Below are positions 1 through 47,136 of a DNA stretch of 64,000 bases, piece by piece. Positions within the stretch are counted from its first letter, which is position 1. Each line of letters opens with the position of its first letter. The DNA comes from a virus (Duplodnaviria > Caudoviricetes): the IMG/VR virus record IMGVR_UViG_3300017589_000168, positions 1 through 64,000 of that record. One strand, 5' to 3'. The notes below the pieces were generated by a model. It worked only from the letters and a program-made list of their open reading frames with translations, was not told the DNA's origin and ran no database searches. A program made the translations under genes and the position numbers.

Positions 1-2
1 CT

Positions 3-161: not shown

Positions 162-260
162 AAGCCGCTATATCAAAGGGTTTTCGCTAATCTTAGTCCA
201 ATTTTTTTACCCTATTTACCCATCACTCAAAATCTTTTTACCCAAGAAAGGAGAACGCCG

Positions 261-1073: not shown

Positions 1074-1076
1074 CCT

Positions 1077-8000: not shown

Positions 8001-8713
8001 ACATGATTGCGGACATTAAAACCGCTGATATGCTGGACTTGCCTACTCCAAAGCTGAAAACCGGCGGTTCACAGGTTATCAAAACGGAATGTACCCCGGA
8101 GCAGAAACGCCTTGTAATGGAGTTGGGAGAACGGGCGGAGAAAATACGCAACGGCCAAGTGGATAGCTCCGAGGATAATTTCCTGAAGCTCACGCTGGAG
8201 GCTCGCCTGCTGTCCACTGATCCGAGAGCCATTGACCCGGATTTACCGGATGACCCCAATACAAAACTCAATGTCTGCGCACGGAAAGCGGCTGAAATCT
8301 ACCATGAAACCGCTGAGAACCGCTTGACACAGCTTATTTTCTGCGACCAAGGCACGCCCAAGGGTGACGGCAGCTTTAATTTTTACGAGGCTACCAAGGC
8401 GGTGCTGATTGCACAGGGGGTAAAGCCGGAGGAAATCGCCTTTATCCACGATGCCAAGACGGACGTACAGCGGGAGCAGCTTTTTGAAAAGGTGCGAACC
8501 GGTGAAATCCGCATCTTAATGGGCAGCACCGGAAAAATGGGCACCGGCATGAATGTTCAAAATAAGCTGGTGGCTCTCCATCATCTCGATGTGCCGTGGC
8601 GCCCCTCTGATCTCATTCAGCGCAATGGCCGCATTCTCCGTCAGGGCAATGACAACGAGGAAATTTCTATCTTCAACTACATCACAGAGAATACCTTTGA
8701 TGCGTACCTGTGG
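2090..8713 (+). CDS. Exon 1 of a giant polyvalent protein: ArdC-like N-domain, N6-adenine DNA methylase, SNF2-like helicase (DarB-like)
   Basis: LDPALGTGNFF and GNVPF methylase motifs; AHEVGAGKT, VDEAH, TGTPISN, QRNGRILRQGN helicase motifs; ends ...FDAYLW at the intron 5' boundary. Confidence 0.9.
2856..3233 (+). CDS. tnpV: TnpV-like protein nested in the +1 frame of the helicase gene
   Basis: 125-aa ORF with AAAGGAG SD 8 nt before ATG; LLYPEL...VGRFG...KVDEEAESR...AEEIV pattern resembles the TnpV family; terminator follows. Confidence 0.72.
   Translation: MRTEPLMNLNYRKSEDGLLYPELQISENEKIDRTPVGRFGNLWKNFMLENHPHRLSELVAQGKINEMILKVDEEAESRKERLIQELLTAQPMPDTEDTMERAAHMGMITDTAEEIVINELVLQPR
3247..3290 (+). 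terminator. Intrinsic terminator inside the helicase ORF, just after the nested ORF
   Basis: 15-bp stem GCCGCCCACAGATGG/CCGTCTGTGGGCGGC (one G-U), 7-nt loop, followed by T7. Confidence 0.75.
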
Positions 8714-11061
8714 GTGCGACATGAAGTCGCCTGATTTAACTGTCTGGCATTGTGACCAGACCAACTTTTCCGTAAGTTGAGCCTAATATCAACTGCATTG
8801 CTGGTAACGGCGGTGTGGTAAGCTGATATGAAAATGTAGCCCTATTTGGAGGCGAAGCCGTGAGGCAGAGCCGAAACTGTTAGCACAATACGGTTAGGGA
8901 GCAGGCTTGATAGTATGGTTAACGTAAGTGAACTACTGATAAACGTCGTTAAGGCGAACAGGTCAAAGTTGCTGATAGACCTGAACCAAAATGGTATGCA
9001 GTCGGATAATCCTTTCCATAGTGGGATTACACGGACACAAGACTGCCGGCGGAGAGGTAGAACCTAAACTATCATTGTTAATCAGGTGGAACATGGTAAG
9101 CCCGTACTGTTGCTTTTAGCAAAGCAGACTGTAAGGAATGCCGATAACAGTGCGGGTACAGGAAAACGGAAAAAGCGAATGCCATTTTGTAATGAGATGG
9201 ATAGGAGTTTCAATGTTACTCCACACGAAAGTGGGCAGACTTCCGTTCGGTTTCTAATCACAAGATAATTTACAGAATTTTGAAAGGAGAAAGCAAATGA
9301 ACATGAAAATGTGTGCTACTTCTGACGTGGCTATGCAATGGGAAAGCATTGACTGGAACAAAGCCGACCGCTACGTTAAAAACCTGCAAATGCGTATTGT
9401 GAAAGCATTTCAGGAGGGCAAGAAAAACAAAGTGAAATCACTGCAGCACTTGCTCACTACCTCTTTTTATGCTAAAGCATTGGCAGTAAAAAGAGTCACA
9501 GAAAATCAAGGCAAAAAGACAGCAGGGGTTGACGGAGAAATCTGGACAACACCAAAGGACAAATATCAGGCAATAGAAAGGTTACAACGCAGAGGTTACA
9601 ACCCAATGCCGTTAAAAAGGGTATATATCCCCAAGAAAAATGGCAAGAAAAGACCTTTGAGCATTCCGACCATGACAGACAGAGCCATGCAGACTTTATA
9701 TAAGTTTGCATTAGAGCCGATTGCAGAAACCACCGCCGACCCCAACTCTTATGGGTTTCGAGCGAAAAGATGTACGCAAGACGCTATTGAACAATGCTTT
9801 ACCAGTCTGAATAAAGGTAAATCTCCAAAATGGGTGCTTGAGGGAGATATAAAGGGTTGCTTTGACAACATTAGGCACGAATGGATACTGGAACACATCC
9901 CTATGGACAAGGAAATACTGCAAAAATGGCTCAAATGCGGATATATTGAAACCAAGAAACTATTTCCGACAGAGTTCGGAAGTCCGCAGGGTTCGCCGAT
10001 TTCACCGACTATCAGCAACATGGTACTTGATGGCTTGGAAAAGGTAATCAAGAATAAATACCACAAGCATAAGGTGAATGGAAAGGCATATTTTCCAAAG
10101 GTTAATTTTGTCCGTTACGCTGATGACTTTATCGTCACAGGAGAAAGCAGAGAAATTCTTGAAAACGGTGTAAAGCCCATTATCATTGAGTTTCTCGCTG
10201 AAAGAGGTTTGGAATTGTCAGAGGAAAAGACACTGATTACCCACATCAATGACGGTTTCGACTTCTTAGGCTGTAATGTCAGGATGTATGGAAATAAACT
10301 CTTGACCAAGCCCTCTAAGAAAAACTTTGAAGCGATAGTCAGAAAAATCAGGGATGTCATCAAAAGTAACCAGTCAGCAAAGCAGGACTTCTTGATTAGA
10401 AAGCTCAATCCTATCATTCGGGGTTGGGTAAATTATCAGAAGTATAACGTATCTGCACAAGCCTTTGAAAAGCTTGATTATGAAATTTGGCAATGCCTGT
10501 GGCAATGGTGCAAAAGACGGCACCCCAAGAAAAGTCGGAAATGGATTGCAAAGAAATATTTCCACACAATCGGAAATCGGACATGGACTTTTAGCGTTCC
10601 GACTGACGGTAAAATGGAAAATGGCGAAGATTACTATATCCGCTTGATTTACGCAACAGATACAGACATCAAGAGATTTACAAAAATTAAAGCGGACGCA
10701 AATCCATTCGATGAAAATTGGCAGTTGTATTTTGAAGAAAGAGCCGACAAGCAGATGAGGAATGAAATCAAGGGAAGAACCATCATAAATAGGCTGTACA
10801 AAGCCCAACAGGGTTGTTGCAGTCATTGTGGCGGTAAAATCACTCTTGAAACAGATTTCCAAATCCACCAAGTTGGTAATGGAAAGAATATGACAAAAAG
10901 TCTTGTACACCCTGAGTGCCACCAAAAACTCCATGCCTTGGCAAAATGTGAAATGCTGGCTCTCGAAGGAGAGTTTATAGAAGCTTGAGCCGTGTGAGGG
11001 GAAACTCTCATGCACGGTTCTTAGGGGGGAAGGTGGCAGTAATGCCGCCGACCTACCCGAC
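8714..11061 (+). mobile_element. Group II intron (IIB, CL1-like) inserted in phase 0 in the helicase gene
   Basis: Starts GTGCG; domain V GAGCCGTGTGAGGGGAAACTCTCATGCACGGTTC at 10987-11020; ends ...CCCGAC; removal restores FDAYLW|QILEQKQRYISQIMT; EBS1/EBS2 match the exon. Confidence 0.95.
9297..10988 (+). CDS. ltrA: Group II intron reverse transcriptase/maturase with a degenerate HNH domain
   Basis: RVYIPKKNGKKRPL, EGDIKGCFD, PQGSPISP, RYADDF, GFDFLG; C-terminal CSHC...HPECH. Confidence 0.95.
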   Translation: MNMKMCATSDVAMQWESIDWNKADRYVKNLQMRIVKAFQEGKKNKVKSLQHLLTTSFYAKALAVKRVTENQGKKTAGVDGEIWTTPKDKYQAIERLQRRGYNPMPLKRVYIPKKNGKKRPLSIPTMTDRAMQTLYKFALEPIAETTADPNSYGFRAKRCTQDAIEQCFTSLNKGKSPKWVLEGDIKGCFDNIRHEWILEHIPMDKEILQKWLKCGYIETKKLFPTEFGSPQGSPISPTISNMVLDGLEKVIKNKYHKHKVNGKAYFPKVNFVRYADDFIVTGESREILENGVKPIIIEFLAERGLELSEEKTLITHINDGFDFLGCNVRMYGNKLLTKPSKKNFEAIVRKIRDVIKSNQSAKQDFLIRKLNPIIRGWVNYQKYNVSAQAFEKLDYEIWQCLWQWCKRRHPKKSRKWIAKKYFHTIGNRTWTFSVPTDGKMENGEDYYIRLIYATDTDIKRFTKIKADANPFDENWQLYFEERADKQMRNEIKGRTIINRLYKAQQGCCSHCGGKITLETDFQIHQVGNGKNMTKSLVHPECHQKLHALAKCEMLALEGEFIEA

Positions 11062-12333
11062 CAGATTTTAGAGCAGAAACAGCGGTATATCAGTCAGATT
11101 ATGACCGGTCGCTCTACCCTCAGAACCTGTGAGGATGTAGATAGCACTATGCTCCAGTATGCCGAATTTAAGGCCCTTGCAACCTCCGACCCAAGAATTA
11201 AGGAGAAGATGGAAACGGATAACGAGATCAGCCGCCTGACGGTGCTGAAATCCGCATGGCAGAGCCAGCGCAACGACCTTCAGTACAGGATTGGAAAACA
11301 CTATCCAAGCCAGATTGCCGCCACCGAGCGTAAAATAGCAGGGATGGAAGCTGACCTTTCTACCTACACAGGAAATAAGCCGGCCGAGTTTCAAATGACT
11401 ATTGACGGCAGGCTCCATGATGAGCGAACGAAGGCTGCCGAACATTTCATGGTTCGTTCCCGCAAGCTGGGACGAAACACCGGGGACACCCTTGATGTGG
11501 GCAGCTATGCAGGCTTTCCAGTCCGGTTGATACGGCGTATGGGAGATGGAGTTGGCATCCAGCTATGCGGCAAATGCACCTATACTACAGATTTGGGCGA
11601 GTCGGAGCTGGGAAACATTACCCGTATTGAAAATCTTGCGGAACGCATTTCATCAGAACTGGAAGTCGCCAAGAACGACCTTGCGGATTTGCACCGCCAG
11701 CTTGATGCGGCGAAGCTGGAGAGTGAAAAACCCTTTGCCGGTGAAGAAAAATTGGTGCAGTTACAGAGAAAAAAAGTTGAGCTTGACCTTGCCTTAGAAT
11801 TTAAGGATACCCCTGATCCTGTTTTAGAGCCGGACGAGGACAATGAGAATGTTATGAATTATGAGCCGGACGGGGAAGCAGATGCACCAATCAGAACGGC
11901 TCCCCCCTCTGCACACCTCACGCTGGAACAGCGGCTGTATCAGAAGCTGGCGGTTTTCGCAAGCCCCATCCTTGAGGGGGACGCCTATTACATGAAGTTG
12001 AAAAGTGAAGGATTTGAGGATTTGGTGCTGGAGGCCATTGGTGGGGATGAATACAGTATCGCCCATTATTACAGACAAAATGGTGATTCCATGCGTGACC
12101 CTGAGATTACCTTTACCATTGATAGACAGACCTGTTCCATTCACCCTACATCGTTCTTACAGGACGATATAGGGCTTTTTTATGATACGGACAGCGTACC
12201 GCCATCAAGGGTGCGTGATTTGAAGGATTTCATGTCACAGTGGTTTACCAACATCAAGGAGCAGGGGTTTGAGCCTGAAAAGGTATCCGTATATTCATCG
12301 GAAAATGAAGATGAAAGCGAATTTGAAAGATAG
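11062..12333 (+). CDS. Exon 2 of the helicase/methylase gene (spliced product about 2631 aa)
   Basis: In frame from CAG at 11062 (QILEQKQ...); coiled-coil region and C-terminal domain; ends ESEFER. Confidence 0.88.
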   Translation, partial: QILEQKQRYISQIMTGRSTLRTCEDVDSTMLQYAEFKALATSDPRIKEKMETDNEISRLTVLKSAWQSQRNDLQYRIGKHYPSQIAATERKIAGMEADLSTYTGNKPAEFQMTIDGRLHDERTKAAEHFMVRSRKLGRNTGDTLDVGSYAGFPVRLIRRMGDGVGIQLCGKCTYTTDLGESELGNITRIENLAERISSELEVAKNDLADLHRQLDAAKLESEKPFAGEEKLVQLQRKKVELDLALEFKDTPDPVLEPDEDNENVMNYEPDGEADAPIRTAPPSAHLTLEQRLYQKLAVFASPILEGDAYYMKLKSEGFEDLVLEAIGGDEYSIAHYYRQNGDSMRDPEITFTIDRQTCSIHPTSFLQDDIGLFYDTDSVPPSRVRDLKDFMSQWFTNIKEQGFEPEKVSVYSSENEDESEFER

Positions 12334-12343
12334 GAGGGATTTT

Positions 12344-13015
12344 TTGAAACACGATATTTCACCAGAGCTGACCGAGCTTTTCAAGAAAAAAGCATCAGTC
12401 TTAGGGTATTCTGTTCGTGAAGAAGCTGCGGAGCATGACCCGCAGCTTCTTTTATCTGCTTTTCGGGATCAGGAGGAAATCTGCAAATTTGAAAAGACCG
12501 GCGCCATGCGTTTCAGGCGGGACAGCCCTTATGTGACGGAGCGTAAGGAACTGCACAATCTGCTGTTAGACCTAAAAGAACGCTATGATTTATACCTGAA
12601 CGCAAAACCGCTTGACTGTGAAGGGGTCCGTGATTTTCGGCTGATTTCAGAGTTTGGAAATCATCTTCTTGCCGCCAAGCAGTCCAAGGACAATGAAATC
12701 CGCTTTGTCACATGGCAGTATGATTATGACCGCAGCGGCGTGTCCCTCGGACATTACTATGAAACCAATTATGAGGGCGCTTTGAAGGATTTTACCGTGC
12801 GCTCCGGCCTGCTTGACGAAAATCAGCTTTTCACGAAGGATGAAATGGCGGTATTGTATGCCTCCTGCGTATTTCGTGGACGGAATGACGATGACCTGAC
12901 CTTTGAAAGCGAAAAGGAATTGCAGGCCGTCATAGAAAAACTGGAAAGCAATCTGCCCCAGCAGAGTATGGAGCAGGAAACCGCAGCGGAACAGGAGGTT
13001 GAGCATGGAATATAG
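12344..13015 (+). CDS. Hypothetical protein, paralog of 24204..24875 and 24887..25570
   Basis: SD GGAGG then TTG at 12344; RFVTW...DF.RSGL motif shared with the paralogs. Confidence 0.75.
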   Translation: MKHDISPELTELFKKKASVLGYSVREEAAEHDPQLLLSAFRDQEEICKFEKTGAMRFRRDSPYVTERKELHNLLLDLKERYDLYLNAKPLDCEGVRDFRLISEFGNHLLAAKQSKDNEIRFVTWQYDYDRSGVSLGHYYETNYEGALKDFTVRSGLLDENQLFTKDEMAVLYASCVFRGRNDDDLTFESEKELQAVIEKLESNLPQQSMEQETAAEQEVEHGI

Positions 13016-14384
13016 CCAAATCAACACCATTACCAAATTTGGCCCGGACGATTATTCCCTATGGACTCTCACCATGCCCCGTGACCAAATAGGACAAATC
13101 AGGCAAGGCGCGCCTGTTGTGGAGGGCGATATGCGCCGGGTGTTTGAGGAAATCCGTTCCGTCGATTACCAGCCGGAATCGGTATGCAACTTTGTCCTCC
13201 CCCAAAGCAAGGGCTTGCGCCTGTTTCGGGTTGATATGGGTGAAGATTTTGCAGACAGAAACCGGCATAACGGCTGCTCCGTCCGTGGCTCCAGAGAAGA
13301 AATCATGGCAGAGCTGCGTGAGGTACTCAAGGGGCAGGGATACCACCTATACGGAAATGCCCATTTTCAGAATGTAGATGTGCTGGAAACCCTGCAAAAG
13401 ATTGTGGAGCATAACACCGACTATTATAAAACGGACTTCCAGTATGATGTAGAAAAACTGCGAGCGGCTGCTGCTGACCGCAATGCGCAGCGGCATTTCC
13501 TCTGGATGAGCAGGGGCGGCGGAACATGGTGCTTTGCGGAACCGGAGGTCTATATCCGCAGAACCAATGCACATAACACATGGAATTACTACGGCGCCGG
13601 GAATAACAGCGAACACGTTAAAACCTTTTGGATTGAACTGAAAGGTATGCGGGATGAAAAGGTTATGGGCGATATTGTGGAGATAGATTATCAGAAGCAC
13701 TTGGATTATCTCTGCACCCATTCCTTTGAACCGGCTGCCGTAGAGGTAGTGTTCAAGAACCCCAACGGTCTGCGCACCTTTTCCTATCGGGAGTATAACG
13801 AAAATTATCAATCCATTGCCCAGCGTTACGGTACGGTGGAACGCATTGCATTTCAGGTGGAAAACTCCGACCAGTTTGCCCGTGCCGTTATTCAGGCACA
13901 TGGACTGTTTTGGGACGCCACAGAGCCGATGAAAATTGATGATTATGTGAAACGGCTGGATCGTGACCGGCTCCATGATTATGGCTATACCGCCGACAAT
14001 CTGGTTCTGACCGGCCCTTTAGATGCGGAAAAGGCGGTAAAAAACGCTCTTGCCTGCTATGCCCTTTCCCCTGACGGCTCCAAGGAGCTGATTGCCAACC
14101 GTGACGATTTCCAAAAGCACCAGTACAGAGGCGCACTGTTCGGCATGACAGCCGAGGAACGGGACACCCTGCAATATTTCAAGCAGGACTGCACTCCGCT
14201 GTTTTCCCATGAAGAAATGCGGGAAATCTGTGCTCTTGCGGTACAAGCAGGGATGGAAAATAGCCCTGAAAAGGCTTCCCTGCTGGATCGCATTATCCAT
14301 AAGGCGGAGTGCGCCATGTCAAAGGCGGAAATCTCATCTGCTTTGGAGCAAGAACATGAATTTGAGATGGAGGATAGAGAATGA
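13005..14384 (+). CDS. Hypothetical protein
   Basis: Long ORF coupled to both neighbours; SD GGAGG upstream. Confidence 0.75.
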   Translation: MEYSQINTITKFGPDDYSLWTLTMPRDQIGQIRQGAPVVEGDMRRVFEEIRSVDYQPESVCNFVLPQSKGLRLFRVDMGEDFADRNRHNGCSVRGSREEIMAELREVLKGQGYHLYGNAHFQNVDVLETLQKIVEHNTDYYKTDFQYDVEKLRAAAADRNAQRHFLWMSRGGGTWCFAEPEVYIRRTNAHNTWNYYGAGNNSEHVKTFWIELKGMRDEKVMGDIVEIDYQKHLDYLCTHSFEPAAVEVVFKNPNGLRTFSYREYNENYQSIAQRYGTVERIAFQVENSDQFARAVIQAHGLFWDATEPMKIDDYVKRLDRDRLHDYGYTADNLVLTGPLDAEKAVKNALACYALSPDGSKELIANRDDFQKHQYRGALFGMTAEERDTLQYFKQDCTPLFSHEEMREICALAVQAGMENSPEKASLLDRIIHKAECAMSKAEISSALEQEHEFEMEDRE

Positions 14385-17300
14385 AAAAGAAGATGAATCC
14401 CAAAACCAAACGGGCGGTGATGGTTCTTGCCATCATCGCCCTCCTTATTTTTATCATCGGGCTGGTAAGCTGTTCTATTCAGCTTTCGCAGAAAGCCCAG
14501 CCGCAGCCTGCTGTGACGGACACCGATAATCCGGTTCCCACCCCTGACGATAAAATTATAATCCCCAAAATCGACCCTCAAAACCCCGACAATCTGATTG
14601 ACGATGCACCTCCGCAGGAAACCATGGATAGCAAGCCGGAGGAAACCGGGAACGGCGGCAAAGATACGGAACAGGGAAAGAATACGCCTTCCCCTGCAAA
14701 ACCTACGGAGAAACCGCTGGTATCGCCCAAGCCGGTAAAGCCAGCCGATTCTGCCATACCACCGGTTACTCCAACCCCCAAGCCTACTATGCCGCCTGCT
14801 ACTCCCACACCAAAGCCGAGTGAGCCTGTGAAGCCGACAAAGCCCACCGAGCCACCGAAGCAGGAAGAAAAGCCAAGTACGCCCGACAAACCGGGCGGCG
14901 GCAGTACCAGCCATCCCGCCGCTGTGGTAGAAATCCTTATCCCTGAGTACAGTCACGCAGATAGGGATTTTGAAGTAAAGACCACTCTGCGCAACGTGAA
15001 GTCGCTGGACTGGACGATTGCCGTGGACGGAAAAGATACCCCGCAGGGGGATTTTCTGAAAGGCACGCTTGATATAAACGGTGGAAAAATCACCATTACC
15101 AAGCCGGGGCAGTATGTTTTGACCGCTGCCGCTAAAAATCATGGTAATCGTGCCTATACCTTTACCAAGGTAATTACCATTTATCCTACCTTTGACATCA
15201 AGATAGGGGCAGACGAAACTGCCCATACGGATCAATCCTTTGCAGTAAAAACCACGCTTTCCAACAACGTGAAGCAGCAATTAAACTGGCATATCTACAA
15301 AGATGGCAGCGAGGTAAAATGGCAGGAGGCCGTAACAGGCTCCCTCACCAATGCCGGAGGCTCCATTCAAATCAAGGATAAGGGCAGCTACACGCTGAAG
15401 GCTGCCGCCTACGATGAAACCAGCCGGGAATTTTTCGGCAAAGCTGATGTAGAGGTTTATCCTATTATCGAAATCGGCGTACAGGCTCCTGTCGCCGCCC
15501 ACACCGATACCCCTGTTACCGTTACTGTGAATACCAAGGAGTTGGGAGATCTCACACTTGCATGGACTGCGACCAAAGACGGCAAAGAAATCCCCCTGGC
15601 CGACTGTATGGAGGGCAAACTGGACAATACCGGCGGCACGGTGCGTTTCCTCGGCAAAGGAGGTTACAGCCTGATCGCCACAGCTACTGATAAGGCTGGC
15701 AGGGCATTTAGTGGAAAAGCGGATATTAAAATCTATCCTGTGACCGCTTTTTCGTTTTACCTTCCTGCCACTACCCACACCGATAAACCTGTTGAGGTAA
15801 AGGTGGTGTCCTCTGAATTGCAGGACATGACCGCTGAATGGACGGTGCTTTATAACGGTGAAATCACACCTCTTGCATCGGTGCTGGAGGGCAACCTGAC
15901 CAATGAGGGCGGCACGATCCGGTTTAAGCAGAAAGGCGCCTATACGCTGAAAGCTACCCTGATTGATGCCCTCGGACGAGAATACAGCCATGAGGCCAGC
16001 ACTGTGATTTATCCTGTTGCGGAAACAGGTTTTTATATTCCCCCTCAGACCCACACCGATACGGCCGTAGAGGTCAAGACCAGCTTTCAGGAAACAGCGG
16101 GATTGACTGCCGAATGGAGCTTGACGAAGGGCGGCAAGCCAATCACGCTGGAGAGCGGCTTTGACGGAACGCTCACCAATGAGGGCGGCAAAATCCGCTT
16201 TTCCGAGATTGGTGAATATGTTTTGAAGGCGGCTGTTACCGACAGCACCGGCCGCAGCTTTACCTATACCGCCCCTGTAAAAGTATATCCTGTCATCACG
16301 GTTGCAATGGAACTCACCAAGGAAACCCACACGGATAAGGTGGCAACGGCTTCTGTCAAGCTGTCAAACGCCGGTTCCCTGCCTGTGGCTTGGAGCATGG
16401 CAAAAGACAATGTGCCGGTACAGCCTGAGCAGGAGTTGACCGACAAGGGCGGTTCTATCCACTTTTCAGAAAAAGGCAGCTATACCGTGACCGCAGCCGT
16501 AACCGATGAGGCTGGGAGGACTTTTGAGGACAGCAAGACTGTCAAGGTTTACCCAATCCCCGGCATTGCTTTCAGTCTGCCTGCCGCTGTCCACACCGAT
16601 GACATGGTGACGGTTGATACTGCCCTCACCGATATGGAGGGACTGGCGGCGGTATGGTATGTTGACAATACCTATGGTTTTCAGGATTGGGCGGTCTACA
16701 TCGACGGGCAACTAAGCAATCAGGGCGGCTCCATTCACTTCAAGCGTGCGGGTGTTTATGACTTGCAGGCCCGTGTCACTGATCCGACCGGACGGGTATT
16801 CTTCTATAACAGCGGAAAAATCGAAGTCTTGCCGGTGCTCTCCCTCTCCTTTGAACTTCCTGCCACTGGGCATACCGATACACAGATTGAGGTCAGAACG
16901 AGGGGAAACAATAATGTGCTGCCGGTGGAATGGGCGCTGATGAAAAATGGCACAGTCATTCCTTTGGATCAGGCTGTCAGCGGCTCTCTCAATGCACAGG
17001 GCGGTAAAATCCGCTTTACCGGGAATGGTGAATACCGCCTGACAGCAACCATGACAGATGCGCTGGGCAGGATGTTTACCGCCAGCAGTCAGATCAGTAT
17101 TTTCCCCCTTTACAACTGCGATTTCTCTATGCCAGCGGCGATTCATACAGGTCAAAACTTTGTTGTCAACATGAGCAGCTCCATCAACCTGAATGGAAAG
17201 AGCATCGTATGGACGGCAACGAAGGATGGCGCAGCCGTATCCGTTCCCGACTTCTTTAAGGGAGCGCTGGGCAATGGGGGCGGCACGGTTCATGTGGATA

Positions 17301-18439
17301 CGGCAGGCAGTTATCAGCTCACCGCATCCATCACGGATGAGCTGGACAGGGTATTTTCTTGTACCCAAACCATCACGATTTCCAATACTGCACCCTCCAA
17401 ACCGACCCTGACCGCTGATGTGACGAGGACATATGCAGACGGCAAATTCTTAGTGAACCTCACAGCCGCCAGCACTGACCCGGACGGAGATACAGTCATT
17501 TATGAGTTTGAGGGCAAGAACGCAGACAATTATTACCCCCTTGGAACGCATACTGTCAAAGTAAGAGCGAAAGACAGTTATGGCGGGGTTTCGGATTGGA
17601 CAGCGGCAACCTTTACTGTCGCCAATGCCGCACCCGGCAAGCCTGCTTTCTCAGCCAGCGTGACGAGAACAGCCAAAGACGGAAGTTTCCTTGTGAACTT
17701 CTCCGTAAGCAGCACCGATCCTGACGGTGATGCGGTCAGCTATGAGTATCAGAACATGACCGCTGATCGCTATTACCCTGTTGGTACGCATACCGTCAAG
17801 GTAAAGGCGAAAGACAATTATGGCAGTGTTTCCGATTGGGCGGTAGTTACATTTACCGTTGCCAACTCTGCGCCGACCCGCCCTGAGATTACGAGGACAC
17901 CGGGCGGCAACAGCGTGGTGCCGGGAACGCCTGTTACCATCACCGCAAGCAGTGTTGACCCGGACGGAGATAGTATCACCTATGTTTGGGAGGGCAGACC
18001 GTCACAGACGGCTACCTATCCCCTCGGCAAAAACACCGTAAGGGTGAAAGCCGTTGACAGCACCGGCGCAGAGTCGCCATGGGCAGCTATTGTTTTCTTT
18101 GTTATGGATGCAAACGGCAGCGGTGGCATGATGCTGACCGGTCCTGATTCCACCATCAACGAAAACGGGATTGAGGGGGCGACCATTGCAAATTATACCT
18201 TTAATGTACCTCCCGTTTCCGGTCACAGTGGGCAGGACTATGGTAGAGTGCGTGGATACAATGTAACAACCGGCGCGTGGGATCAGCTTGACTACGGGAC
18301 GACCAGCAACGGCATATCCTTCAGCCGGAATTTAACACCCGGCGTATATTCCAAGCTGGAATTTTACTATTATACCAACCACTCGTGTATGTATAACAAA
18401 TCCAATATTACCTATACGGTGGAATATCACTTTGAATAA
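14381..18439 (+). CDS. Large surface protein: N-terminal TM anchor, Pro-rich stalk, tandem Ig/PKD-like repeats; candidate mating adhesin
   Basis: Hydrophobic N-terminus; PTP/KP-rich linker; about 8 repeats with HTD and G.L.N.GG.I.F motifs; three DPDGD-containing repeats. Confidence 0.8.
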   Translation: MKKKMNPKTKRAVMVLAIIALLIFIIGLVSCSIQLSQKAQPQPAVTDTDNPVPTPDDKIIIPKIDPQNPDNLIDDAPPQETMDSKPEETGNGGKDTEQGKNTPSPAKPTEKPLVSPKPVKPADSAIPPVTPTPKPTMPPATPTPKPSEPVKPTKPTEPPKQEEKPSTPDKPGGGSTSHPAAVVEILIPEYSHADRDFEVKTTLRNVKSLDWTIAVDGKDTPQGDFLKGTLDINGGKITITKPGQYVLTAAAKNHGNRAYTFTKVITIYPTFDIKIGADETAHTDQSFAVKTTLSNNVKQQLNWHIYKDGSEVKWQEAVTGSLTNAGGSIQIKDKGSYTLKAAAYDETSREFFGKADVEVYPIIEIGVQAPVAAHTDTPVTVTVNTKELGDLTLAWTATKDGKEIPLADCMEGKLDNTGGTVRFLGKGGYSLIATATDKAGRAFSGKADIKIYPVTAFSFYLPATTHTDKPVEVKVVSSELQDMTAEWTVLYNGEITPLASVLEGNLTNEGGTIRFKQKGAYTLKATLIDALGREYSHEASTVIYPVAETGFYIPPQTHTDTAVEVKTSFQETAGLTAEWSLTKGGKPITLESGFDGTLTNEGGKIRFSEIGEYVLKAAVTDSTGRSFTYTAPVKVYPVITVAMELTKETHTDKVATASVKLSNAGSLPVAWSMAKDNVPVQPEQELTDKGGSIHFSEKGSYTVTAAVTDEAGRTFEDSKTVKVYPIPGIAFSLPAAVHTDDMVTVDTALTDMEGLAAVWYVDNTYGFQDWAVYIDGQLSNQGGSIHFKRAGVYDLQARVTDPTGRVFFYNSGKIEVLPVLSLSFELPATGHTDTQIEVRTRGNNNVLPVEWALMKNGTVIPLDQAVSGSLNAQGGKIRFTGNGEYRLTATMTDALGRMFTASSQISIFPLYNCDFSMPAAIHTGQNFVVNMSSSINLNGKSIVWTATKDGAAVSVPDFFKGALGNGGGTVHVDTAGSYQLTASITDELDRVFSCTQTITISNTAPSKPTLTADVTRTYADGKFLVNLTAASTDPDGDTVIYEFEGKNADNYYPLGTHTVKVRAKDSYGGVSDWTAATFTVANAAPGKPAFSASVTRTAKDGSFLVNFSVSSTDPDGDAVSYEYQNMTADRYYPVGTHTVKVKAKDNYGSVSDWAVVTFTVANSAPTRPEITRTPGGNSVVPGTPVTITASSVDPDGDSITYVWEGRPSQTATYPLGKNTVRVKAVDSTGAESPWAAIVFFVMDANGSGGMMLTGPDSTINENGIEGATIANYTFNVPPVSGHSGQDYGRVRGYNVTTGAWDQLDYGTTSNGISFSRNLTPGVYSKLEFYYYTNHSCMYNKSNITYTVEYHFE

Positions 18440-18452
18440 GTAACATTTGCTA

Positions 18453-18492
18453 CGGGGCATCGCCAGCCATGGTGATGCCCCGATACTTTTTT
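18453..18492 (+). terminator. Intrinsic terminator
   Basis: 13-bp stem CGGGGCATCGCCA/TGGTGATGCCCCG followed by ATACTTTTTT. Confidence 0.7.
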
Positions 18493-18508
18493 GGAAAAGG
18501 AGGTCACG

Positions 18509-19189
18509 ATGCAGGGATTTTTGAAGCCTTATCAAGTGGAGCAGATTAAAAAGAAATATCCGCCCGGCACACGCATCCAGCTTGACCACATGGAAGGAGA
18601 ACATGATATGCCTGACGGCTTGCAGGGCGTGGTGAAGCACATTGATGACCAAGGGCAGCTACACATGGCATGGCAGAATGGGCGTTCCCTTGCGCTTATA
18701 CCAAATGCGGATCAGTTTCACATTCTCCCGCCTGAACAGCAATCGGAGGAAAATAAAATCCGTGTGCTAGTGGTGGAGCTGGGCAAAGCACCCTATGCCA
18801 AGCAGATGGAGAATGACTACCGGACTATGCAGGAGTTGGTGGACGGCTGCATTGAGTTTGTTCCCTTGCCGGAACTGGGCTGCCGCCTTTACTGCAATAA
18901 TGAAGGCAAGCTGACCGGTATACCCGGAAACCGCCGCCTTGATAACAAAGATATTATCTGCGGCACATTTTTCGTCTGCGCTGTTGATGAGCATGGAAAT
19001 GACATTTCCCTGAACGATGAGCAACTCCAATACTACACCGCGCGTTTCCGGGCGCCGGAACACTACACTGATGAGGAAGTCCATCATTCAGAGCGTGAAC
19101 TCAAGATTATGCCCTCCGCAAGCGACAGCATAGAGGATGTCATGCGTATGCTTGGACTTTTGGACGGCAATGACGAAATGGAGAGATAA
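18509..19189 (+). CDS. DUF4314 plus DUF3846-like protein
   Basis: YPPGTRIQL...G.V..IDD.G.LH..W.NG.SL.LIP; then QELVDG.IE...CNNEGKL...ICGTFFV. Confidence 0.65.
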   Translation: MQGFLKPYQVEQIKKKYPPGTRIQLDHMEGEHDMPDGLQGVVKHIDDQGQLHMAWQNGRSLALIPNADQFHILPPEQQSEENKIRVLVVELGKAPYAKQMENDYRTMQELVDGCIEFVPLPELGCRLYCNNEGKLTGIPGNRRLDNKDIICGTFFVCAVDEHGNDISLNDEQLQYYTARFRAPEHYTDEEVHHSERELKIMPSASDSIEDVMRMLGLLDGNDEMER

Positions 19190-19190
19190 C

Positions 19191-19745
19191 ATGGAAGAAA
19201 ATCAAAGTAAGCTGGACAGCTATATTGACTATATCAATGCACATATCCTGCCTTTTATCGACTACAACGAGCTTGACCGTTCTTACCGGACGGAGGAAAA
19301 GGCGTATGCAAAAGGGATTTTGAACCGCCTGCATACGGCTATGCTGGAGCAGTATGGGAACACCCGGCTTGTTTGCGGTCATGGCGATATACATGAGGAT
19401 TATGCCGTGGTTCCCGGCGTGGTACAGGGGAAGAAAACCGGAGAAGTCGCCCTTGCGCTGCTGGGCATAGACCTCTCATCCTCCGGGGAGCATTGTCAAA
19501 CAGAATTTCTCTGTAAATATGGCATCGTTTCACAGGGGCATAATGATTTACCGAAGGCTCTTGCCGGTGAAGTTACCGCAAGGTATCTTCCCTATGACTA
19601 CTGCTACACAGCGGATATTTCCGGTGACATTCATATTTCCAAGAGTAGGCTGCCGGAGGGTATCAAGGAGATGCTGCAAACCTTTCAGGAGCATACGGCG
19701 GAGCTTTTGTTTGAAGAAAGCACGGATATGGATATGGAACGCTGA
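19191..19745 (+). CDS. Hypothetical protein
   Basis: ORF starts 2 nt after the upstream stop; ends DMDMER. Confidence 0.7.
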   Translation: MEENQSKLDSYIDYINAHILPFIDYNELDRSYRTEEKAYAKGILNRLHTAMLEQYGNTRLVCGHGDIHEDYAVVPGVVQGKKTGEVALALLGIDLSSSGEHCQTEFLCKYGIVSQGHNDLPKALAGEVTARYLPYDYCYTADISGDIHISKSRLPEGIKEMLQTFQEHTAELLFEESTDMDMER

Positions 19746-19788
19746 CCGTCCTGTTTGCAGGGCGGTTTTCGATTGGAGGTGAATCAAT

Positions 19789-20835
19789 TTGAGAACGCAG
19801 CCAAGGAGAATGCCATTTACCGAGGAACAGATGAAACAGGTTTTTGACACCAGTATTATTGATTTTGCGCTCACTAACCATTTGCAGCTCGAAAAAGGAG
19901 ACCATGCGACCATGCATGTTAAGGGGCTGCCTGACGGCTGTGGTGGCCTGTACCTCTTTAATCATGGGCGTGGGTATTACTGGTTTGCGAAAGAAACCAA
20001 AGGCAATATTCTCGATTTTGCTATGGATTATTTTGAGCTTTCTACAAAAACACAGGCGATTGAAATGATTTTGGGCTGCTGCGCGCATGATCATTCGGAG
20101 GACTATGCGCGGCTGAATTTTACCCCATCAGAAAAGCCGCCAAGGGGGGAACTGGTTCTGCCTCCCAAAGACAGGGATTTTAACCGTACCATTGCCTACC
20201 TGACAGGAACCCGTGGGATTGATAAGGAGATTGTCTATGCCATGATCAATGCAGGGAAGGTCTACGGAGCCAGAACAGAGGTAAAGAAGGACGGACAGAC
20301 CTACTCGTTTCACAACTGCGCTTTTGTCGGATACGACGAAGCGGGTAAGCCCCGGTACTGCGCTTTACGGGCACCCAGCGCAAACAGCAGCTTTCGGCAG
20401 GATGTGGAGAATTCGGATAAGACCTACGGCTTTTGCATGGAGGGAAAATCAAACCGGGTGTATGCCTTTGAAGCCCCCATTGACGCCATGAGCCATGCCA
20501 CCCTTTGCAAATTCCACGGCATTGACTGGCGAGAGGATCATCGGGTAGCCGAGGGCTGCCTGTCAGATAAGGCGCTATACCGTTACCTTCAGCACCATCC
20601 TGAAATCACCGAGATTGTGTTCTGCTACGATAACGATATGGACGGCAAGCTGAAAGACGGTATCCCCCACAATCATGGTCAGGTGCAAGCCGAGCTTTCC
20701 GCTGAAACTTTTGCGGATTTGGGGTATAGGACTATGATACAAACACCGGTCAACAAGGATTTTAACCTTGACCTCCTTGCATTTAGAAAAGTATTGGCAC
20801 AGGAAAAGCGCCCATTGGAAGAATGGGAGAGATAA
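19789..20835 (+). CDS. DUF3991/Toprim-domain protein (primase-like)
   Basis: YLTGTRGIDKEIV; VYAFEAPIDAMSH; CYDNDMDG Toprim DxD motif. Confidence 0.8.
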   Translation: MRTQPRRMPFTEEQMKQVFDTSIIDFALTNHLQLEKGDHATMHVKGLPDGCGGLYLFNHGRGYYWFAKETKGNILDFAMDYFELSTKTQAIEMILGCCAHDHSEDYARLNFTPSEKPPRGELVLPPKDRDFNRTIAYLTGTRGIDKEIVYAMINAGKVYGARTEVKKDGQTYSFHNCAFVGYDEAGKPRYCALRAPSANSSFRQDVENSDKTYGFCMEGKSNRVYAFEAPIDAMSHATLCKFHGIDWREDHRVAEGCLSDKALYRYLQHHPEITEIVFCYDNDMDGKLKDGIPHNHGQVQAELSAETFADLGYRTMIQTPVNKDFNLDLLAFRKVLAQEKRPLEEWER

Positions 20836-20869
20836 TCAGTCCGGGGGTCCTCGGAGAAAGGAGGCTGCC

Positions 20870-21211
20870 ATGCGCCCGGTTTATATTTGTCAGCTTTCCG
20901 AGAAAGAGCAGAATGAGATACGGAAGCTGTTAGAGGGCTTGATTCTCCATGGCTGCGGCGGGGATAAGTCCGAGGTGCAGCGTTACTATGGCATGAGCTT
21001 TGAAGAAGCGGTACAGAACGGTATGGATTCCAAGATTGTGGATTTAGACTATCTGATGGTTTTCTACGCAGAGGAATATCAGACCTCCAGCGTGGATGAA
21101 CAGTTTCGTCTGGCTGACGCCGCTGTGATCTCCCATATTCTCAGGGAAGCGAGAAAGCATGAAACAGATAATCCATTGATTCCATGTCAGGAAGATGAAT
21201 GGGAACGGTAG
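20870..21211 (+). CDS. Hypothetical protein
   Basis: SD AAGGAGG then ATG at 20870; ends EDEWER. Confidence 0.65.
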   Translation: MRPVYICQLSEKEQNEIRKLLEGLILHGCGGDKSEVQRYYGMSFEEAVQNGMDSKIVDLDYLMVFYAEEYQTSSVDEQFRLADAAVISHILREARKHETDNPLIPCQEDEWER

Positions 21212-21224
21212 TATAGACTTTTGT

Positions 21225-21410
21225 TTTCGCCCTTTCAGGGAGCGAAGCGACCACGCCCCCACCGCTTGCGGTGGGGGCTACTTAATGCCAAAATCTTAGA
21301 TTTTGGAGTTAAGGCAGGAATAGGCGGGTTCCACCCGCCAAGAAAACAGCTTACAGGCAAAGCCTGTAACGGGGTTCCCCATCATATAGAGGTGTTCTAA
21401 ACGGAACACC
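21225..21410. other. Cluster of 6-7 inverted repeats; candidate oriT, single-strand origin or structured RNA
   Basis: Perfect stems at 21255-21278 (11 bp), 21288-21306 (9 bp), 21323-21339, 21351-21369 and 21391-21410, directly upstream of the RHH gene. Confidence 0.55.
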
Positions 21411-21427
21411 GTGGAAAGGAGGCTGCT

Positions 21428-21898
21428 ATGCCTGAAAAAAGTCTGAAACGGTCTATCAATTTTTCACCTGAAACCTTAAAAGCATTGGATACCCTTGCGG
21501 CGAAAAACAGCACGACCACCTCGGAACTGGTTCGCCAGTATGTTGAAAAAGGACTGTCCATTGAGGGATATAGTCAGGACATTGATTTCATTGCACGGAT
21601 TGTCCGGCAGGAGCTGATGGCGGTTTACCATCTTGAGGACATCAAGGCTGTGGTGGAGCAGCAGACAAACCGCATTGCCAAAATGCACATGAAGTCCGGC
21701 AAGATTGACGCCGCTGCTTTCTTTCTGCTTATTAAGGTTTTGATGAACATTGCCCATGAGGGTACGGAGGATCAGTTTGACCAAATGCTGAATGAGGCCG
21801 TCACGCTGGGCGTGGACTATATGCAGAAAAAAGATTTTCAGATCAACAGCTTTTTGCAGGACACGGACAATCTGCGCCGTCTTGCGGATAAGCTGTGA
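21428..21898 (+). CDS. Ribbon-helix-helix protein, probable relaxosome accessory factor
   Basis: KRSINFSPETLKALDTLA...SELVRQYVEKGL RHH pattern; upstream of the relaxase. Confidence 0.7.
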   Translation: MPEKSLKRSINFSPETLKALDTLAAKNSTTTSELVRQYVEKGLSIEGYSQDIDFIARIVRQELMAVYHLEDIKAVVEQQTNRIAKMHMKSGKIDAAAFFLLIKVLMNIAHEGTEDQFDQMLNEAVTLGVDYMQKKDFQINSFLQDTDNLRRLADKL

Positions 21899-21917
21899 TT
21901 AAGAAATGGAGGCATTT

Positions 21918-22412
21918 ATGACACAGGCAGACAGATACAGAAAACTTACCGCGCTGACAACGCGGGCAGATAACCTCGATCCGGCTTATCATGCGGCTTT
22001 TTATCTGCTATCCTATGACCCGGAGCTTTACGAAACCGCCCGCAGATTTGTGAACGTGGACGGCATCGGCTTTACTGACATAAAACGAGCAACCCTTGAC
22101 TTTGACGAGCGCACACGCTTTGTTGTTGACATTGCCCACAACTTGTTTTCCTATAACAGTGCTTGCAAAGCCACTCCCTTTGAGATTTCACGGCTGGGTT
22201 ATCCCTACTTGGAAATGGTGTGCAACTCTTTCTATATTGCCACGGGAGAGGTTCGGGTTATTTTGGAGCAGGGGCAGGACGGACAGCATGAAATCAAGCT
22301 GGATAATAGCCGTTATCAGCAAAGCAAGCGTATCCAGCAGCAGTTTGAGCAGCTACAAAAAGCCATGACTGCGGACATGGTGCAGGACGAGGCCATAGAG
22401 CCAGAAAGGTAA
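21918..22412 (+). CDS. Hypothetical protein
   Basis: SD GGAGG then ATG at 21918; ends EAIEPER. Confidence 0.7.
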   Translation: MTQADRYRKLTALTTRADNLDPAYHAAFYLLSYDPELYETARRFVNVDGIGFTDIKRATLDFDERTRFVVDIAHNLFSYNSACKATPFEISRLGYPYLEMVCNSFYIATGEVRVILEQGQDGQHEIKLDNSRYQQSKRIQQQFEQLQKAMTADMVQDEAIEPER

Positions 22413-22424
22413 GGTGAATTTATT

Positions 22425-22946
22425 TTGATTACAGGAGTTATCCGTTATCGGGGCGGCACGCTGGTGGTAGAACTGCCCTGCGGAGCTTATGAGCTGGCGG
22501 AGCATTTGGGCAGTATCGGCATCCGTTCCCCGGCTTCGGAGATTTTGGCCCATGGCACGGAACAGGTTGAAGTAAAGCTGGCAGCCGGTGAACCGATTGG
22601 AGCATTTATTCTTGCCAACCTTCGGGACAGCGACACGCTCTCCGGCGTGAACCTTGCCTGTCAGGAGGTGAACCGTGTCTGCCCCTTTGGGTATGATGAA
22701 TTTCTGGATATGCTCGATCCCGATCCGCAAGCCGGTTTTAACCGCTATGCGTTTTACAAGCCCTATGAAAGTTTGCCGCCCAGCACCGCAGGGGGCATGA
22801 AATTCATTTTGGAGGAAAGCAGGCGCTATCACTCCACGATGGAGAATTACCGCACTGTATGCGAAGCGGAGGCTGCGGAGGACGACTGCAATATCAGGGA
22901 AGTAAATCGGATGTTGGATTCCGGCGAGGATGAATGGGAACGCTGA
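22425..22946 (+). CDS. Hypothetical protein
   Basis: TTG start after AAGGTGA; ends EDEWER. Confidence 0.7.
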   Translation: MITGVIRYRGGTLVVELPCGAYELAEHLGSIGIRSPASEILAHGTEQVEVKLAAGEPIGAFILANLRDSDTLSGVNLACQEVNRVCPFGYDEFLDMLDPDPQAGFNRYAFYKPYESLPPSTAGGMKFILEESRRYHSTMENYRTVCEAEAAEDDCNIREVNRMLDSGEDEWER

Positions 22947-22962: not shown

Positions 22963-24183
22963 ATCTCCCTTTTAGTCTATAAGCAGAGATTCAAGAATCC
23001 CAATTACAAAAGCACGCCCAGCAAAAATTATGCCCATGTGCGCTATATTGCTACCCGTCCAAGGGTTTCTAAAAACGATGGCATGAACCATGGACTGTTC
23101 GGAAAGCTCTCCCCTGGTCCCATTACCGACTTTGAGGACTGGCGTGATGTGGCAAGGTTGGTATATGCCAATTCAAAAAAGCATATCACCATGTACCGCA
23201 GCGTAATTTCTTTTGACGAGGAAACGGCTGCTGAACTAAACCTGACCGACCAAAAAGCATGGCAGAGATATATTGAAAACCACATGATGACGATTGCCGA
23301 AAAAAACAATATTCGGCGTGAGCATTTACAATGGGCGTGCGCACTCCATAAAGAAAAGCACCATCCCCATATCCATGTAGTGTTTTGGGATACCTCGTCA
23401 CGGGTTAAAAATCCCTTTACCCCGCCTGCTATCCCCAATGCTATCAGAAAGCAGCTCATCAAAGATACCTTTGCGGAGCGTATCCGTGCCTACGGGGAGG
23501 AAAAGAACAAGTCTGCCGCTGAACTCCGCAGTATTAGCAATGAACTAGTAGACGAGTTTGAACAGCATCTGCGGCGGCTGGGCAAAGACCAGTACAAACG
23601 GCACCGTGCTGACTATGACGAGGAAAACGAGCTGTCGGGCAGCTTTGATTTTGACGATGATGTGCTGAATGAAACTGCTGACCGTGTATTCCGCCTTAAA
23701 TCCGCACTTCCAACCACCGGCCGTATTGCCTATCAGCTTTTGACTCCAGAGATGAAAGCCAAGGTGGATGGGCTGGTAGAGTATCTTCTTGAAAATGTTC
23801 CGGTACTTAGGGAGCAAAAGGAACGCTACATAGACAGCAAAATGAAGATGGCCCTGCTCTACGGCGGCAGTGATGAATACCTTGACAGCCTGCGGAAGCG
23901 GTTTTCCGAGGAAGCCGATAAAATCATTGCAAACCGTCTGCTGGGTATGGTAAAGACCTTGAACCGGCTGGATTATGAGATGAAGTCCGAGGAATACAAA
24001 AATGCCCGCCGTTCCTATTTTGCCGAGCAGATGCTGATGGAGGCGCTGGATATGCTTTCCGGTCTGACCCGTGACAACGACAGCCGTTTCAGCGATTGGG
24101 AGAAAGCAAACGGCCGTGAGCTGTCAAAGGACGCTAAAAAGGAGCTATTTTTGAAATTACAGGATAAAGGCTATGAACATTAA
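22963..24183 (+). CDS. MOBP-type (MobP3-like) relaxase; the SD-supported start is ATC at 22963, first canonical start GTG at 23038
   Basis: YIATRP motif I; MYRSVISF motif II; ALHKEKHHPHIHVVFW HUH motif; frame open upstream to 22957. Confidence 0.85.
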   Translation: MSLLVYKQRFKNPNYKSTPSKNYAHVRYIATRPRVSKNDGMNHGLFGKLSPGPITDFEDWRDVARLVYANSKKHITMYRSVISFDEETAAELNLTDQKAWQRYIENHMMTIAEKNNIRREHLQWACALHKEKHHPHIHVVFWDTSSRVKNPFTPPAIPNAIRKQLIKDTFAERIRAYGEEKNKSAAELRSISNELVDEFEQHLRRLGKDQYKRHRADYDEENELSGSFDFDDDVLNETADRVFRLKSALPTTGRIAYQLLTPEMKAKVDGLVEYLLENVPVLREQKERYIDSKMKMALLYGGSDEYLDSLRKRFSEEADKIIANRLLGMVKTLNRLDYEMKSEEYKNARRSYFAEQMLMEALDMLSGLTRDNDSRFSDWEKANGRELSKDAKKELFLKLQDKGYEH

Positions 24184-24875: not shown

Positions 24876-24886
24876 GGAGTATGCCT

Positions 24887-25570
24887 ATGAAAACCAAAAC
24901 CGAGTTTTATCAAAGCTATTTTGAAATCCTGCAAAAAAAGGGCTTTACCGTGCAGCCCTCCACTTCGCCAGACTATGTGGCGGACATTTACCACAAGGAT
25001 AAGCTGATCGCCTTTTTTACCAAGAACGACATGGTAATGAAAAACCCCTTTGTTGAAGTACAGGATAAGCTCATGGACAGGATACAGACCCTTGCCAAAT
25101 CTACGGCGGTAGCGTGCGGGATCTGTTCGGATAAGCCTTACGACGAGGAAACTGCCGTGAAGCTGTCCAACAACCTGTATCGGCTCAATGAGCACAACGG
25201 CGTAGTGTTGGCCTGCAAGCATCACCCTCTATTCGAGTATGTGCTTTCCACCTACCGCTGTGACGAAACTAAAAACCCGATCCAGCGCCAGTATTTCTAC
25301 AACAAAGAGGACGCCTTTGAGAGCTTCGCTACCAGAAGCGGCCTGATTGATGAAAAACGGCTTTTCTCTGAAACTGATTTGAAGGTCATCTATGCAGGGC
25401 TTGTCAAAATGCGTACCATTGACAATGACATGACGCAGGACGATCTCAACTCTGTGGAACGGCTGGTGGATAAAATCGAGGACATTGTGCCGGAGTTGCA
25501 AAAAAGAGAAAAGGCACTGGATTTCTCCTGGCTCTTTGGCAGTATGGAGCGAGGAATCGAACGGGAATAA
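24887..25570 (+). CDS. Hypothetical protein, paralog family member
   Basis: Full-length similarity to 24204 and 12344; SD AAGGAG. Confidence 0.7.
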   Translation: MKTKTEFYQSYFEILQKKGFTVQPSTSPDYVADIYHKDKLIAFFTKNDMVMKNPFVEVQDKLMDRIQTLAKSTAVACGICSDKPYDEETAVKLSNNLYRLNEHNGVVLACKHHPLFEYVLSTYRCDETKNPIQRQYFYNKEDAFESFATRSGLIDEKRLFSETDLKVIYAGLVKMRTIDNDMTQDDLNSVERLVDKIEDIVPELQKREKALDFSWLFGSMERGIERE

Positions 25571-47128: not shown

Positions 47129-47136
47129 GGTGGCTT

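Follow-up and report, generated by a model that had tools for sequence, protein, structure and literature searches.

A short acidic tail ending in Glu-Arg on unrelated proteins of a Clostridia conjugative element: a candidate docking or export tag

The element and its tailed proteins

The DNA analyzed here, hereafter the window, comprises the first 64,000 nt of an 87,470-bp single contig (IMG/VR record IMGVR_UViG_3300017589_000168). Despite the virus label it bears in the database, the element is not a phage but an integrative conjugative element (ICE) of the Clostridia type, since it combines a complete type IV secretion system (T4SS)/Tad conjugation set with recombinase-sized open reading frames (ORFs; three of serine recombinase size at 74–79 kb of the contig) and has an integrated twin, 92% similar, in the chromosome of Lacrimispora sp. 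HJ-01 (5.194–5.286 Mb); the plasmid and phage collections contained no near match. Its genes encode ParA and ParB, a giant methylase/SNF2-helicase, a large immunoglobulin-repeat surface protein, a ribbon-helix-helix (RHH) protein, a relaxase of the MobL/MobP3 type, VirD4, a pilin, TrbL, a Tad pilus set, VirB4 and a C39-like protein. In the lineage to which this ICE belongs, at least 11 unrelated protein families evidently carry one and the same short C-terminal tail, an acidic run followed by a hydrophobic residue, Glu and Arg, which may serve as a docking or export tag in conjugation.

Eight products of the window end in ER directly before the stop codon (Table 1), two more end in RE (stops at 14384 and 25570) and two in related acidic stretches (26894 and 41910), all as the initial annotation of this DNA had listed them; in the remaining 23 kb of the contig there is no further tail except an FERE ending at 81531. 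The final Arg of the eight is encoded three times by AGA, twice by CGC and once each by CGG, AGG and CGA, and TAA, TAG and TGA all follow as stops. None of the eight bearers has a predicted membrane segment, their isoelectric points range from 4.5 to 6.0, and the net charge of their last 15 residues lies between 0 and −8, being negative in seven. That they are unrelated, as also claimed earlier, is borne out by the lack of mutual similarity once the last eight residues are removed (best E 0.016 over 20 aa). These ORF sets consist of the longest non-overlapping frames rather than curated gene calls, and the true starts are probably at 18509, 19191, 20870 and 12344; a Shine-Dalgarno site and an ATG at 20870 lie 3′ of the preceding stop. 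The Pfam scans took in 50 ORFs of the window, equal to some two thirds of all ORFs called for the contig and with most of the large ones among them, and neither NCBIfam nor PHROGs gave a name to any tailed protein without a Pfam assignment.

Table 1. Tailed genes and associated features of the window (all positions in window coordinates)
Feature	Positions	Strand	Evidence and remarks
Exon 1, giant methylase/SNF2-helicase "polyvalent" gene	2090..8713	+	Pfam Eco57I-type methyltransferase, ResIII, SNF2, Helicase_C
Group II intron interrupting the giant gene	8714..11061	+	Rfam RF02012 at 8761-8901, RF00029 at 10985-11061
Exon 2 (DUF6908)	11062..12333	+	Tail ESEFER, codons 12313-12330
DUF4314-DUF3846 protein	18509..19189	+	Pfam; tail NDEMER
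Acidic protein without assigned function	19191..19745	+	Tail DMDMER; 16/21 family members end ER
DUF3991 + Toprim (primase-like) protein	19789..20835	+	Pfam; tail LEEWER
Small protein without assigned function	20870..21211	+	Tail EDEWER; 3/3 family members end EDEWER
Tight inverted-repeat cluster	21255..21369	.	Arms 21255-21278, 21281-21313, 21351-21369
Protein between RHH and relaxase genes	21906..22412	+	Tail AIEPER; orthologues 8/10 ER, 2/10 MEC
Protein directly upstream of relaxase gene	22425..22946	+	Tail EDEWER
Relaxase	23038..24183	+	Pfam MobL; relatives named MobP3 family by NCBI; ends DKGYEH
Member of three-copy paralogue family	24881..25570	+	Ends GIERE, the tail plus one residue
DUF7768 (nucleoside deoxyribosyltransferase-like) protein, gene overlaps virD4 start	26979..27662	+	Variant tail GDLCQ
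VirD4-type coupling protein	27653..29932	+	Pfam T4SS-DNA_transf, TraG-D_C, TrwB_AAD_bind; 4 predicted transmembrane segments
Soluble acidic protein in Tad block	41041..41910	+	Variant tail LEEMEA; matches phrog_6186 (function not assigned)
Soluble acidic protein in T4SS block, two genes upstream of virB4	47104..47781	+	Tail EEMEER

The first of the eight tails belongs to the giant gene. The ORF at 11101–12333, with DUF6908, does not encode a separate protein but is evidently the 3′ exon of the methylase-helicase gene, which is split by a group II intron with its own reverse transcriptase/maturase ORF (9297–10988; Pfam RVT_N, RVT_1 and GIIM). Exon 1 is 93% identical in DNA to bases 1–6624 of the intact Lacrimispora HJ-01 orthologue, and the alignment to that orthologue stops at 8713 and restarts at 11062. 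The uninterrupted gene has 2630 codons and ends ENEFER, and 11 of 15 orthologues of exon 2 end [NTEQ]E[FIY]ER. Thus a methylase does carry the tail. The earlier statement that T4SS, Tad and orphan methyltransferase genes lack it also needs correcting for the tailed protein inside the T4SS block and for the Tad-position proteins of related loci described below. The cargo inserted in the Lacrimispora HJ-01 element of this type has no tails.

A peptide under selection

We derived the motif from 86 unique 12-residue ER ends, a set in which Arg at −1 and Glu at −2 are fixed by choice. The consensus is an acidic run, Asp or Glu at −4 (87%), a hydrophobic residue at −3 (chiefly M/L/W/F/I; with Y and V, 88%), Glu, Arg and the terminal carboxylate. 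Position −3 is Pro in 5 of the 86, positions −8 to −5 are about 50% acidic with scarcely any Lys or Arg, and basic residues account for 8% or less at each position from −12 to −3.

How unusual is such an ending? In 560 kb of the Lacrimispora HJ-01 chromosome only 3 of 550 ORFs end in ER, none of them in an acidic-hydrophobic context, so that about 0.4 per 75 would be expected where the window has 8 among some 75 ORFs (binomial P = 9.6e-9). For related elements we sampled 80 genome loci (L001–L080), each extending 10 kb to either side of a homologue of the DUF4314-DUF3846 protein, the single anchor family. Among the 1440 ORFs there, ER closes 94 and far outnumbers every other C-terminal dipeptide, and these ends are spread bimodally: 98 of 525 ORFs in the window and L001–L025, hereafter the ER lineage, versus 4 of 991 in L026–L080. 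The enrichment check proposed in the initial annotation thus returns a roughly 50-fold excess over both the host and other elements. The stricter pattern [DE]-hydrophobic-E-[RH] occurs in 83 of 525 ORFs of the ER lineage versus 0 of 991 in the other lineages and 0 of 550 on the host chromosome, and counting families instead of ORFs, 9 of 41 multi-member families have a majority of ER ends in the ER lineage versus 1 of 44 elsewhere.

Conservation among orthologues points the same way. The ending [DE][DEG][MFI]ER persists in homologues of the DUF4314-DUF3846 protein as distant as 58% identity, whereas the preceding linker is variable in both length and sequence; among the orthologues of 22425–22946, 11 of 12 end [DE][DG][DE]?[WIL]ER, and a 10-residue linker indel falls just before the conserved tail. 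In seven families the last two residues are 60–90% identical among unique orthologues versus 15–39% at positions −14 to −5, the protein bodies being 60–83% identical. All six Arg codons are used in the 98 tails, and their stops are divided among TAA (44), TAG (30) and TGA (24). By all these indications selection acts on the peptide and not on a DNA repeat, as had been suggested from the window by itself.

The tail also appears to be unstructured. An AlphaFold2 model of the DUF4314-DUF3846 protein, built from a 42-sequence alignment, has a mean predicted local distance difference test score (pLDDT) of 86 and two confident domains, followed by 35 C-terminal residues (190–226) of low confidence, the last 6 with pLDDT below 50; together with the variable linker, this agrees with the disordered C-terminus general to T4SS signals. 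A model of the 22425–22946 family (9 sequences) reached a pLDDT of 55 and was not used. In the former model DUF4314 forms a small SH3-like β-barrel with weak Foldseek matches to SH3-like, CPH, tudor and BirA-C folds (E 0.01–0.1), and Foldseek returned no solved relative of the DUF3846 part at E < 0.1.

Bearers and variants

Across the ER lineage, 96 of 342 soluble ORFs have an ER end, as against 2 of the 107 ORFs that contain membrane segments. The families concerned are the giant methylase-helicase, the DUF4314-DUF3846 protein, the DUF3991-Toprim protein and four small acidic families without assigned function, two of them between the RHH and relaxase genes; in related elements a HipA-like kinase, DUF5688 proteins (with the variant DMExEL) and DUF4240 proteins join them. 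Orthologues of the primase-like protein end in ER in 12 of 21 cases and in E[ED]IR in most others, and where the 19191–19745 family is fused to DUF4314, a different architecture, the fusion likewise ends [DE][DE][MFLV]ER.

Several proteins carry variants of the tail. At the position matching the Tad-block protein 41041–41910, loci L022–L027 encode proteins that end EWER or EWEI and form a separate BLAST cluster; the protein atlas has only unnamed clusters for 41041–41910 itself. Relatives of the T4SS-block protein 47104–47781 in L024, L026 and L027 end ELEVEAE or ELEVES, and the idea that this protein is a relative of DUF3846 was discarded after hhalign against the DUF3846 alignment proved negative. 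The orthologues of the DUF7768 protein end ELCR or DFCR, and its homologues in other lineages end MQMGGM and similar. For 24881–25570, the orthologues in L021 and L023 end TLER and VLER. The paralogue trio to which it belongs (12344–13015, 24204–24875 and 24881–25570) has no Pfam, NCBIfam or PHROG match, and its orthologous subgroups differ in the acidic ending that each conserves (EDEHGI, YFQNEM and GIERE); by eye, the C-terminal region of 12999–14384 resembles the trio.

Tail types across elements and hosts

Other lineages have a tail of their own. Endings of the form hydrophobic-x-hydrophobic-G-G-[MI], or close variants, terminate 34 of 991 ORFs in 10 families there and 0 of 525 in the ER lineage; their bearers include homologues of the DUF4314/DUF3846 and DUF7768 families, ArdA, LPD28, DUF3849 and an Imm51-like protein. 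Examples of GG[M/I] or Met-rich ends in L029–L078 are L030:9020–9889, L033:7869–9020 and L047:8904–9983. The genomes of Lacrimispora and Hungatella show both dialects within each genus, on different elements. The tail type thus evidently follows the element and not the host, which in turn argues that its reader is encoded by the element. A second conjugative element of Lacrimispora HJ-01 (C1:1853000–1893000; L119–L121) shows a third tail type in one host, about 10 of its 25 proteins ending in a basic stretch with a final Arg (among them ...EKTR, ...EMVR, ...EKVR and ...TRKR).

Homologues elsewhere often do without. DUF4314 proteins on phage-like contigs have no tail, and among 149 DUF4314/DUF3846 representatives (50% identity), ER closes 18, in some cases after a Lys-rich linker, another 11 have acidic-hydrophobic tails of other kinds and many have none. 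The tail is therefore shared by unrelated proteins of one T4SS and absent from homologues elsewhere, a pattern expected of T4SS signals in general. In the nearest T4SS family (L022 and L024–L027; VirB4 about 68% identical), orthologous tails toggle between ...EWER or ...DLER and ...EWEI, ...DLEL or ...DLEV, so that the last residue seems less constrained there; in the T4SS/Tad block of L024–L027 this switch between Arg and Ile, Leu or Val sometimes occurs inside one element. The DNA pattern for [DE]EWER-stop matched 7 times in 401 Clostridia genomes versus 4 for the control, a test without power for tails outside elements. Among the matches listed, all those inspected other than that of Lacrimispora HJ-01 were out of frame, and we therefore take the lineage to be rare among those 401 genomes.

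A partner encoded by the element

Because the tail is unstructured, C-terminal, portable between families and co-varying with the element, an element-encoded reader is implied, and we consider it quite probable that the tail is a selected tag read by such a partner. Which partner would this be? The likeliest is the conjugative T4SS on its substrate-receptor side, whether through the VirD4 ATPase itself or through something attached to VirD4, since no other machine shared by all these elements is known to pick out soluble cytoplasmic proteins by C-terminal peptides. A docking or export tag read by this coupling ATPase is the reading we tentatively favor, at a likelihood that falls a little short of even, with VirD4 of the window as the candidate reader.

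The relaxase, itself a certain substrate of the T4SS, bears on this proposal. Its C-terminus, DKG[YF]EH, is near-invariant and is not ER: [YF]EH is the ending in 119 of the 120 homologue clusters and in all 13 orthologues at the loci, with identities as low as 46%. This YEH may be the same motif with His for Arg, i.e., hydrophobic-Glu-basic; no relaxase of the G-G-M lineages lies within 10 kb on either side of the anchor. Besides the relaxase's YEH, the VirD4 reading fits two bearers encoded where relaxosome auxiliary proteins lie, the primase-like bearer and the giant polyvalent methylase-helicase of the P1 DarB type.

Under the proposed mechanism, the tail would act as a short linear motif on the disordered C-terminal ends of soluble proteins of the element, with His for Arg on the relaxase, and would be read by a partner that the element encodes. 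It would recruit to the channel the relaxase, the two small proteins adjoining it, the primase-like protein, the giant methylase-helicase and several small acidic proteins, at least some of which may enter the recipient together with the DNA and act there before the genes of the element are expressed. The bearer classes fit proteins that act early in the recipient, namely the giant methylase-helicase, the primase-like protein and the HipA-like kinase; ArdA and LPD28 bear the other dialect. What the data show is the motif itself, its upkeep by selection on the protein, its restriction to one element lineage and to soluble proteins, and its replacement on homologous proteins of other lineages; which partner reads it, and that bearers are exported, is what we infer. 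A broader version is possible, though more doubtful: hydrophobic-Glu-[Arg/His]-COOH after an acidic linker would be an address code for Gram-positive VirD4, borne by the relaxase and an anti-defense and replication escort, with sister lineages using other dialects (hydrophobic-x-hydrophobic-G-G-M, or a Lys-rich ending E-R).

Several points weigh against the favored reading. With their genes lying in the Tad and T4SS blocks, two of the bearers could belong to the machine and not to its cargo. The tail is missing from ParA, ParB, the RHH protein and the two small methylases. The equation of the relaxase YEH with the ER tail is our conjecture from the ending. The ER counts include orthologues and hence are not independent, and the lineage boundary between L025 and L026 was drawn after the data had been seen, which is why the counts were checked at the family level and with the stricter motif.

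The main rival, to our minds unlikely on the whole, is docking without export, in which the tail tethers proteins in the donor to one element-encoded hub, be it a relaxosome or transferosome scaffold, a cytoplasmic ATPase of the Tad or T4SS machinery, or a regulator. It would account well for the tailed proteins inside the Tad block (41041–41910 and its EWER/EWEI counterparts) and the T4SS block (47104–47781) and for those encoded immediately beside the relaxase gene, and it has a precedent in the F plasmid, where the TraD tail bound to TraM links without being a secretion signal (PMC8829557); however, no hub candidate emerged, and it would leave unexplained why the tail sits on polyvalent proteins and on those of the anti-restriction type, which have their targets in the recipient. 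A generic physicochemical role, as an acidic DNA mimic, solubilizer, auto-inhibitor or entropic bristle without a dedicated reader, has a low probability: it would suit the acidic bearers (isoelectric points as given above) and the roughly 50% Asp/Glu in the four to five residues before the core, yet it would neither fix hydrophobic-Glu-Arg at the last three positions in 11 or more families nor let the tail be exchanged for the non-acidic G-G-M in sister lineages.

The probability of a degron or timing tag, by which a protease or adaptor would shorten the life of the protein in the donor or after establishment, is lower still. C-terminal degrons do exist in bacteria, but the tail type tracks the element and not the host genus, Pfam finds no cytoplasmic protease in the element (only a membrane prepilin peptidase and the C39-like protein with transmembrane segments), and the polar -E-R end is unlike known tags of the ssrA/ClpX type, with non-polar last residues such as LAA; the suggestion in the initial annotation that the set might be clients of one protease is accordingly disfavored. 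The set may, as it also suggested, be clients of one adaptor. A nucleotide-level or chance effect, finally, has next to no probability. Of the eight window tails, three (19189, 22412 and 47781) run over the Shine-Dalgarno site that serves the following gene, as an in-frame ribosome-binding site with a start 4–12 nt downstream would have it; but lineage-wide a next start falls within 6 nt of the stop in 14 of the 98 tails and none lies within 12 nt in 62, so that in-frame Shine-Dalgarno sites, fitting at most three window tails and a minority overall, were rejected. A DNA repeat or common 3′ ancestry was rejected as well, since the codons vary and no similarity is left upstream once the tails are removed, and with variable codons and stops and a P of about 1e-8, coincidence is likewise refuted as a general explanation.

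Comparison with known signals

The substrates of the Agrobacterium VirB/D4 system carry a net-positive signal with several spaced Arg residues. The present tail is similarly C-terminal, with an Arg that matters and VirD4 as the presumed receptor; it differs in being net negative with a single terminal Arg, and an Arg-rich, net-positive C-terminus was not found. In the type IVB Dot/Icm system of Legionella and Coxiella, the signal consists of a Glu-rich E-block and a hydrophobic residue near −3 and is read by DotM, a member of the coupling complex, the published E-block lying at −10 to −17. The likeness, already drawn in the initial annotation, is one of resemblance and not of membership. Shared are the extreme unstructured C-terminus, an acidic run that puts a Glu-rich block within the last 20 or so residues, the hydrophobic −3, and occurrence on many unrelated proteins of one T4SS. 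The spacing differs, as the acidic run here abuts the terminus (−8 to −4) and the last two residues are fixed as Glu-Arg; the system is a Gram-positive, type IVA-like one with VirD4; and the bearers are element-maintenance and anti-defense proteins, not effectors against eukaryotes. Dot/Icm effectors bind DotM (PMC12857230). The Pfam scans of the 50 window ORFs, which found VirD4, found no adaptor of the DotM or IcmSW type, no dedicated remote-homology search having been made.

The nearest published parallel is the KRRR tail of the tfs3 ICE of Helicobacter pylori, which is shared by CtkA, PZ39 and Fic and was read as a T4SS signal, deletion of the C-terminus having an effect; T4SS signals are typically described with a hydrophobic residue or Pro at −3/−4 and a disordered C-terminus (PMC5536186). 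Both cases involve unrelated proteins of one conjugative element with a short disordered tail and homologues elsewhere without it. The tfs3 tail, however, is basic and known from three proteins in a Gram-negative, whereas ours is acidic with a terminal Arg and spans 11 or more families in Clostridia. On the F plasmid, TraM binds the acidic C-terminal tail of TraD (PDB 3D8A; PMC8829557), so that there too an acidic C-terminal peptide joins the relaxosome to the coupling protein, and two bearers here occupy the positions of auxiliary proteins. The polarity is reversed, the F tail being on the coupling protein and the pocket on the accessory protein. How the relaxosome is joined to the coupling protein in pLS20, a related system, is still open (PMC8829557). 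One paper predicts that the polyvalent proteins which conjugative elements and phages encode, P1 DarB among them, are delivered with the DNA, and it names no delivery signal (PMC5512222); the giant methylase-helicase here, like LPD28 and ArdA in the sister lineages, belongs to those classes.

We found no published description of such a tail for Gram-positive systems, and a December 2025 review of T4SSs describes limited evidence on Gram-positive substrate selection without naming a signal (PMC12857230). Substrate choice by the conjugation machines of Gram-positive bacteria is an open question, for which the tail, being short, portable, lineage-specific and present on the protein classes expected to act first in the recipient, provides a concrete hypothesis. 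T4SS hand-off by such a tail would, if true, be new for Gram-positive conjugation. It could then be read from sequence which proteins (anti-restriction proteins, kinases and polyvalent proteins) Gram-positive conjugative elements inject, cross-talk between elements and the use of helpers by small mobilizable elements could be predicted from the tail type, and there would be a handle to block or retarget transfer among gut Clostridia.

Further observations

On a phage-like IMG/VR contig (L092:8500–11600), where no transfer genes were seen in 12 kb, several small ORFs in a row, which may be paralogues of one another, have the endings ...EVQE or ...EVKE.

The inverted repeats of Table 1 occupy a 217-bp gap upstream of the operon that comprises the RHH gene, the genes of two tailed proteins and the relaxase gene, a position that makes 21255–21369 a candidate origin of transfer. 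In the Lacrimispora HJ-01 copy a 15-kb cargo insertion lies in that gap.

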